DNA from: Eledone cirrhosa
Taxonomy: Eukaryota
Length of the DNA stretch: 64,000 nucleotides
Direction of reading: 5' to 3'
NCBI GenBank assembly: GCA_964016885.1
Contig: OZ024743.1
Coordinates: forward strand, 122,636,001-122,700,000
A model generated the notes under the pieces. It was not told the DNA's origin, did no database searches, and was given only the letters and a program-made list of their open reading frames with translations. The position numbers and the translations under genes were made by a program. Position 1 is the stretch's first letter, and the number at the start of each line of letters is the position of its first letter. Shown piece after piece: positions 30,965-31,615 of the stretch.

Positions 30965-31611
30965 TAAAGAGTTAAACAAGATTCAATGAGTACAAGAAAG
31001 AATGAGTTTTACAGTAGATTGGAAGCACTCTACAGTAATAAAAAAAATAATTTTCCAGAGTTATTAATATTAAAATATAAATATTAATAAAATAAATGTT
31101 CTTTTGATCAATTAAATTTTATTATACATATTTCAGAGGTACAACAGTACGTCCTCATCAGACAAAATATAATGATACATGACATACCCTGGGATGTTAA
31201 ATAGTTAAGATTTAATCAAGTTACCTTGATTAAATCTTAACCATTTAACGCGAACACACACACCAAACATTATACACACAGGCAAACACATGCGCAGAGA
31301 CAGAGACAAAAGTAAATAAATAAATAAAATAAACATGGCGTAAACACAACACAAGAGGAGGAAACATGATAATTGTACCACTGATAATGTATATATTGTA
31401 TGGATATATGTATATATTAAAATACAAATATGAATAAAATAGATGTTCTTTTGATCAATTAAATTTTATTATACATATTTCAGAGGTACAACAGGTATGT
31501 CATGTATCATTATATTTTGTCTGGTGAGGACGTACTGTTGTACCTCTGAAATATGTATAATACAATTTAATTGATCAAAAGAACATCTATTTTATTAATA
31601 TTTGTATTTTA

Positions 31612-31615
<4 letters not shown>
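30965..31615. mobile_element. Hammerhead-bearing non-autonomous Penelope-like element with partial tandem repeat and inverted 5' copy
   Basis: ~80-bp direct repeat with 347-bp offset (31067-31147 vs 31414-31494). Inverted copy at 31495-31615. (TA)n on both sides. Hammerhead at 31116-31168. Confidence 0.78.
31116..31168 (-). ncRNA. Type I hammerhead ribozyme (inverted, core-mutated copy at ~31514-31566 +)
   Basis: Minus strand reads AUUUUGU-CUGAUGA-GGACGUAC-UGUU-GUACCUCU-GAAA-UAUGUA-UA^AUAAAAU. The plus copy has CUGGUGA. Confidence 0.82.

Follow-up and report, generated by a model that had tools for sequence, protein, structure and literature searches.

A hammerhead-bearing patch of the Eledone cirrhosa genome as a probable decayed, rearranged end of a very abundant Penelope-type element

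A hammerhead-like motif on the minus strand of Eledone cirrhosa contig OZ024743.1 raises two questions: to what kind of element it belongs, and how it is related to a second such motif about 23 kb away. Both lie within a stretch of 64,000 nucleotides (positions 122,636,001 to 122,700,000 of the contig), hereafter the window, and all coordinates below refer to it. The first motif is found near 31 kb and the second near 7.6 kb. The patch of some 650 bases near 31 kb is best explained as the end of a Penelope-type element of very high abundance, in a copy that has decayed and been rearranged.

The main hammerhead has the type I order and occupies 31111..31173 on the minus strand. Pattern matching and structure place the core CUGAUGA at 31161-31155. 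It is followed by stem II (31154-31135, eight positions with the loop UGUU), GAAA (31134-31131), a helix III of eight self-complementary nucleotides (31131-31124), which forms 8/8 pairs as a dimer, and A17 (31123). The stem II pairs are, in order, G.U, G-C, A-U, C.C, G-C, U-A, A-U and C-G, so that seven of eight positions are paired. Stem I has 12 positions with 11 paired: seven unbroken pairs, a U.U at position 8 and four more pairs. Cleavage is predicted after AUA, between 31123 and 31122, and this register was chosen because stem I forms in no other. The alternative with cleavage after GUA was rejected, as stem I fails there at its first two pairs. The sequence-only reading had placed a hammerhead at 31116-31168 of this strand. 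It is real; that span corresponds to stem I pairs 1-7, and the shared 5' motif extends to 31173.

The main copy matches the type I elements CUGANGA, GAAA and NUH exactly, with three helices around the core. A strict descriptor finds two matches in the window, the main and the 7.6-kb motifs, and none in 300 locally shuffled windows. The strict shared pattern has no match in metagenome contigs. Looser patterns of core and helix III yield six matches in metagenome contigs and 32 in viral contigs, and both stems are present in none of these 38 chance matches. Rfam gives no hammerhead family at E<=1 across the window, nor at E<=10 in 921 nt; its other hits, to microRNA, snoRNA, tRNA and sRNA models, stay under the gathering scores and fall mostly in microsatellites or palindromes. 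By its sequence the main motif is a genuine type I hammerhead.

Repeat, structure and tail alignments delimit the related element at 7538..7894 on the minus strand. It consists of a forward copy (7789-7538) with the hammerhead (core 7637-7631) and no tail, joined head to head to an inverted pLTR end with tail on the plus strand (7790-7894). Both of its ends lie in (AT)n, and one (AT)n tract is common to it and to a 310-nt tandem array. As had been claimed, the two motifs share their 5' and core sequences: 11/12 letters of the stem I 5' strand are identical, and helix III is wholly so. Stem II had been said to differ entirely, which is wrong, since 8/16 letters are identical and all eight differences are transitions. 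Three stem II pairs are changed on both sides, two on one side, and none is broken. In stem I two pairs are changed on one side (G.U versus A-U, U-A versus U.G), and here the earlier statement that pairing is kept agrees with our comparison.

Altogether three two-sided and four one-sided changes between the families keep pairing, with far lower numbers in slid controls. The covariation score (3 two-sided changes in 3 rows) is reached by 20/500 shuffles. Eight random substitutions keep all seven stem II pairs with P = 0.007 at a two-thirds share of transitions, and with P = 0.11 if all are transitions. The earlier claim that the stems covary stands as far as compensatory changes are found and no pair is broken, but it comes from two sequences, and at these shuffle counts and P values (0.007-0.11) the sequence evidence for pair covariation between the families is modest.

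The homology extends to the tails. In the 7.6-kb element the tail has 84 nt, and it can be aligned over its full length with the 101-nt main tail (55 identities, about two-thirds identical); this global alignment is matched by 8/2000 shuffles and by 0/948 GC-matched stretches of the window. Local flank alignments are weak, with shuffles as good in 40/1000 cases for the tail, 69/1000 upstream and 271/1000 for the region behind the stems; from stem I to the pLTR end no significant similarity is obtained (1326/2000 shuffles as good). The latter result and the low complexity of the DNA could be taken as signs of convergence or chance resemblance in AT-rich sequence. Such an origin is hardly credible, however, given the near-identical stem I 5' strand, the identical helix III, the transition-only differences in stem II, an 11-mer common to both elements upstream and the colinear tail. 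On these alignments the main and 7.6-kb elements are sister families, homologous beyond the ribozyme. The "third hammerhead family" of the sequence-only reading is hence a real motif, but a sister of the 7.6-kb element and not an independent system.

The patch around the main hammerhead is composite. Along the minus strand (AT)n is followed by an inverted pLTR copy, an 81-nt pLTR piece, decayed (AT)n, a piece of another repeat, a palindrome, the main pLTR, a tail and again (AT)n. Both flanks are microsatellite: (AT)n/(GT)n at the tail end (30860..30965) and, at the other end, an (AT)n tract (31616..31669) shared with a 595-nt tandem element; no target-site duplication is readable in (AT)n. The main pLTR copy, recognized by repeat comparison, spans 31067..31221 on the minus strand, reaching at its 3' end 56 nt beyond the predicted cut. 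The 5'-truncated piece of 81 nt (31414..31494, minus strand) starts in stem II, contains the substrate half of the hammerhead and has no tail. The two form a direct repeat (31067-31147 and 31414-31494) with three differences and a spacing of 347 nt. The inverted copy of 121 nt (31495..31615, plus strand) stands head to head with the 81-nt piece, likewise without a tail, and carries a hammerhead at 31509-31571. The end point is identical to the letter in the three pLTR copies (31067, 31414, 31615) and lies 56 nt beyond the cut; the tail extends to 157 nt.

Reads of 4 of 8 listed runs (DNA or unlabelled) were aligned to 30968-31612; two of these runs, X1 and X2, represent one sample, from which the window itself may come. 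The summed depth over the hammerhead is 2.6-4.6e5, versus 7-20 for the listed X1/X2 contigs; this depth is not a copy number, and the pLTR family is a very abundant repeat. A pile of read starts at 31292 in run X6 presumably marks the restriction site of a RAD library and not biology. The 101-nt tail, present at this end only (30966..31066, minus strand), was delimited by read depth, a contig and the tail alignment. Its summed depth is 2e4-2.4e5 in X1/X2, the contig of a relative runs from the main tail into (TA)n, and contigs of a second organism pass into AT repeats at the tail end and at the pLTR end alike. We assign the tail to the element because it is high-copy and because the second-organism contigs run from its end into AT repeats.

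The main pLTR ends 5' in a palindrome of 25 bp (31196..31249, arms 31196-31220 and 31225-31249), which is a probable fold-back product. Family reads past 31220 carry other sequence, a short natural hairpin, and position 31221 is covered by only 21-26 X6 reads. Of 15 joints listed in the reads, seven have one side at 31220-31226, which fits a fold-back at this place, although the departure of the main copy from the family at the same point biases their detection. Next to the palindrome lies the piece of another repeat (31250..31390): most reads diverge before 31247 (2494 reads) and behind 31390 (1117 reads), and neither continuation is found in the 64-kb window. In the reads this middle piece (31247-31390) has several left-hand continuations. 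Directly behind the upstream pLTR piece follows decayed (AT)n (31391..31413), over which the reads have pure (AT)n letters (31403 G>T in about 99%); 204 reads continue from it into AT repeats.

The order of these pieces admits two histories. The same element might have inserted twice, once as 30966-31249 (284 bp) and once as a head-to-head stump at 31414-31615 (202 bp), with 164 nt of host DNA between them, and the apparent tandem would then be a coincidence of microsatellite targeting. This is a possible history, consistent with the natural insertion end of the upstream piece and the decayed (AT)n behind it, with an allele equivalent to 31078 that both stump halves have and the main copy lacks (42-47% in X1/X2), and with unrelated elements sharing one (AT)n tract twice in the window. 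Nevertheless, host DNA between two insertions is mildly disfavoured by the absence of the continuations of 31250..31390 from the window. Because neither of them is found there, we slightly favour one composite insertion that carried the unrelated 164-nt spacer between its direct pLTR pieces.

This anatomy resembles that of known EN+ PLE units. PLE insertions are described with an adjacent inverted 5'-truncated copy, a tail at one end and a microsatellite bias (Craig et al. 2021, PMC8557442); reports also include a palindrome on the 5' side of the pLTR, and direct pLTRs with unrelated DNA caught between them (Arkhipova et al. 2013, PMC3846280). According to PMC2377424, Penelope has a 34-bp repeat at its ORF start, often found again at the 3' end. 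The patch has two direct pLTR pieces, one inverted, 5'-truncated head-to-head copy, the optional tail at one end, the palindrome, a hammerhead in the pLTR, an AT-rich microsatellite target and unrelated DNA between the pLTRs. Unlike these units it contains no ORF, its tail is 84-101 nt long in the two sister families versus 30-40 nt as published, and there is no tail behind the upstream pLTR piece. In a true partial tandem of Penelope the inner pLTR continues via the tail into the body, whose beginning the tail repeats. As this piece runs instead into decayed (AT)n and then an unrelated repeat, it is not a true partial tandem. The Penelope pLTR arrangement proposed earlier is therefore retained with its two direct pieces, inverted copy and one-end tail, but without the partial tandem.

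The hammerhead itself is likewise of the PLE kind. PLE hammerheads are reported to have a dimer design, low activity, a long helix II and a subtype with palindromic helix III (Cervera and De la Pena 2014, PMC4209133), and they form heterogeneous families with pairs on opposite strands 100-700 bp apart (PMC4209133). Here, too, we find a type I motif, a helix II of 8-10 positions with an irregularity, a palindromic helix III and loop, and a pair of motifs on opposite strands. The palindromic helix III and loop and the long helix II of the min-HHR consensus, as given in PMC4209133, are present in the main motif. Contrary to this consensus, positions 9 and 10.1 follow each other without an extra nucleotide, helix I is longer, and the pair G10.1-C11.1 is G.U here, A-U at 7.6 kb and G-C in 26-44% of the family. 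We did not find this hammerhead variant described in the literature searched, and the motif lists in the supplements of PMC4209133 and PMC8557442 may contain it. The available excerpt of the octopus repeat annotation gives 31 Penelope-like families and leaves ribozymes unmentioned (PMC13282606).

Animal non-LTR retrozymes offer another model, as they originate from pLTRs and require that two complete motifs follow each other (bioRxiv 10.64898/2026.07.22.740005; PMC7229834). Like them (Cervera and De la Pena 2020, PMC7229834; Li et al. 2026) the patch is non-coding, low in GC and pLTR-derived and has a type I hammerhead, and the 347-nt spacing of its direct repeat fits the reported monomers of ~300-390 nt (PMC7229834). 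A classical tandem retrozyme, in which a 347-nt monomer is cut twice and circularised, is nonetheless very unlikely. The patch lacks two consecutive units with a complete hammerhead: there is one complete sense motif only, and the two copies then run into different sequence. Furthermore, read depth along the presumed monomer differs more than 100-fold, even with skipped repeats left aside, and the reads do not link the middle segment to the pLTR.

The retrozyme definition fits two other arrays of the window. The 310-nt tandem (1847-7496) has 15 plus-strand and three inverted cores in units about 100% identical; its type I hammerhead has a stem II that opens with U.U, and its ends are 39 nt apart, the canonical tail length. 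The fourth hammerhead family adjoins the patch at 31670-35522, with a 595-nt tandem on the minus strand and a 784-nt inverted copy, both ends being (AT)n. Its cores lie at 31825, 32418, 33013, 33608 and 34203 on the minus strand and at 35201 on the plus strand. They read UUGAUAA (the published U3-A8 exchange), with a 59-nt stem II arm, a 10-nt palindromic helix III and a GUC site. The 3' half is exact in 4/5 minus copies, and the two ends differ by 166 nt. Both arrays run through their tails (39 and 166 nt), unlike the inner pLTR piece of the patch. Comparison of the main pLTR and tail with the 310-nt and 595-nt units reveals no similarity (94-969 of 1000 shuffles as good). Weak matches to the pLTR end or tail at 1583-1619 and 29306-29336 (81-87% over 23-37 nt) may be AT-rich chance or very old fragments.

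Each of the four hammerhead elements in the window has a head-to-head arrangement, (AT)n at either end and two alternative end points. Pfam searches of six of the window's 28 long ORFs give RVT_1 and a weak zf-RVT only, with no Penelope RT or GIY-YIG; a bacterial promoter scan, unsuited to an animal element, shows nothing. RVT_1 (E 9e-23) belongs to a broken non-LTR retrotransposon at 50841-53015 and 54204-54617 on the minus strand, which from its motifs may be R4/Dong-like. Two related broken ORFs at 28007-28891 (plus) and 41557-42522 (minus) have no Pfam match and may be ends of CRE-type retrotransposons.

The reads also show how the hammerhead varies in the family. Variants are unphased and are given here as the best 40 of 133 substitutions. 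Seven of these 40 (133 in all) fall in the main hammerhead, and four of the seven keep or create a pair. U11.1C, found at 26-44% in X1, X2 and X6, produces the canonical G10.1-C11.1, and G2.2A (41-49%) produces an A-U pair. Two alleles at 31115, together 71-97%, repair the U.U of stem I. Two of the variants among the 40 of 133 break distal stem I pairs 9 and 11, and no core change in the main copy is among them. At the fourth stem II position C11.4A makes up 32-46% of the family depth or reads, at a depth nearly equal to that of U11.1C. One subfamily therefore probably has C.A here, barring a partner change outside the 40 substitutions. The C.C mismatch noted earlier at this position is indeed the same in both motifs of the window, but owing to C11.4A it is not invariant. 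In addition, 99/1016 X6 reads carry a 12-nt insertion, with which stem II can be read as extended to ten positions like that of the 7.6-kb motif; so read, this form shows two further two-sided differences from the 7.6-kb stem II. The common family variants modestly suggest that core-proximal pairs are kept or repaired. The pairs kept between the two families and among the variants lend modest support to selection on the hammerhead in the lineage.

The inverted copy (31495-31615) has four differences in its 121 nt. Its core reads CUGGUGA, as the sequence-only reading had reported, and with A6G at 31524 it departs from the type I core at A6. We find a second lesion besides, A1.4C at 31563, which breaks stem I pair 4. 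The A6G and A1.4C letters occur at a depth of about 30-150 only, versus 3.6-4.6e5 over the main core, and are therefore rare and probably private decay. Position 6 changes are reported to reduce hammerhead activity (PMC3088659), and in one ribozyme the Mg2+ rate fell by orders of magnitude with A6C (PMC7151607); in the literature searched we found no direct measurement of A6G. Considering both lesions together with this literature, the earlier inference of inactivity is reasonable, and the inverted-copy hammerhead is probably inactive.

Whether the main copy cleaves can be approached by folding. The isolated motif folds no better than shuffles (45/200), and the active fold of the monomer has -2.9 versus -9.4 kcal/mol for the optimum, tertiary contacts being outside the model. 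For two strands, a full copy with the substrate half of a second copy, the active fold (-9.8 kcal/mol) comes within 1.3 of the optimum (-11.1 kcal/mol). When a 529-nt transcript is folded, the upstream motif pairs with stem II, which leaves the two active folds 12-17 kcal/mol less stable than the optimum; no such pairing is predicted for the 7.6-kb element. In these models helix III of the main copy does not suffice for a monomer, and misfolding is predicted for this copy. Cleavage after AUA is slower but occurs naturally, and the triplet is found in active natural hammerheads (PMC1636495). The PLE hammerhead is reported to be protein-assisted, and its cleavage to be dispensable for insertion in vitro (PMC11167929); of nine dimers, only one cleaved (bioRxiv 10.64898/2026.07.22.740005).

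One could propose from this that the fold is conserved chiefly to serve the element protein as a signal for binding or folding, and that natural copies hardly cleave. The unfavourable active fold, the G.U or A-U at 10.1-11.1, the slow AUA triplet (PMC1636495) and insertion in vitro without cleavage (PMC11167929) are in line with such a role. We consider it unlikely, since the catalytic core is exact in both families, helix III stays palindromic, the 40 of 133 substitutions include no core change in the main copy, and active natural hammerheads with AUA exist (PMC1636495). Most likely the hammerhead would cleave weakly, as a dimer via the palindromic helix III or with protein help.

Hence, we suggest with some confidence that the patch is the terminal module, a pLTR with hammerhead plus tail, of a very abundant EN+ Penelope-like element or of a non-autonomous derivative, and that it is now a decayed passenger. 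For a purified PLE protein, nicking on both strands of AT-rich DNA has been reported (Frangieh et al. 2024, PMC11167929), and the choice between two internal RT start sites defines the tail (PMC11167929). In the proposed mechanism a Penelope-like RT/GIY-YIG protein acting in trans would nick AT-rich microsatellite DNA. Reverse transcription would then start at one of two internal RNA sites, 56 or 157 nt past the cut, and the choice of the site would give ends without or with the tail. Copying would stop early, and a second cDNA or a fold-back may produce the head-to-head inverted copy, whose anatomy is seen directly. Both outer ends of the patch are in this way element 3' ends in (AT)n. The locus itself would be a passenger in decay, its inverted copy mutated in core and stem I and its main copy predicted to misfold.

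The 11-mer upstream of the hammerhead (31180..31190, minus strand) permits a further, more speculative reading. It is common to the 7.6-kb element (7675-7685), has only these two matches in the window, both exact, and a common word as long occurs in 18/5000 shuffles. It resembles the 5' splice site AGG/GTATGT, a likeness that we treat as a putative donor. The motif lies about 34 nt inside the inversion hot spot near 31220, and the inverted copy begins at its GT. In constrained folds of 31180-31197 and 7675-7698 (both minus strand) a small hairpin with a bulged U is possible, in which the 11-mer supplies the 3' strand. No acceptor was found for this motif; a candidate at 31031-31030 was rejected, as 53-65% of the family are without that AG. 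Penelope is reported to have an intron 46 bp past its start (PMC2377424), and a Chlamys intron to span the pLTR boundary (PMC8557442). It is doubtful, but conceivable, that AGG/GTATGT is a conserved donor ~34 nt inside the RNA 5' end, with the hammerhead and both RT starts within a 5' intron. If this were true, splicing would lead to mRNA and retention to the transposition template. Pairing of the donor motif with stem II would hold the ribozyme off until the donor is used, and the fourth-pair mismatch (C.C or C.A) would tune this stem II switch. The inverted copy, starting exactly at GT, would be a cDNA of the excised intron in this one case. Penelope hammerheads would then have a testable job, and the tail of 84-101 nt would be an unusually long interval between RT starts.

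Last but not least, hammerhead-bearing Penelope ends in such an arrangement have been published before, and the patch is a decayed copy of this established class. What it adds is that two diverged sister families in one window keep the core, helix III and the stem pairing, although roughly one in three of the remaining letters has changed. This retention amid change lends modest support to the view that the fold is selected in the lineage, and a family of this abundance would permit a proper covariation test.
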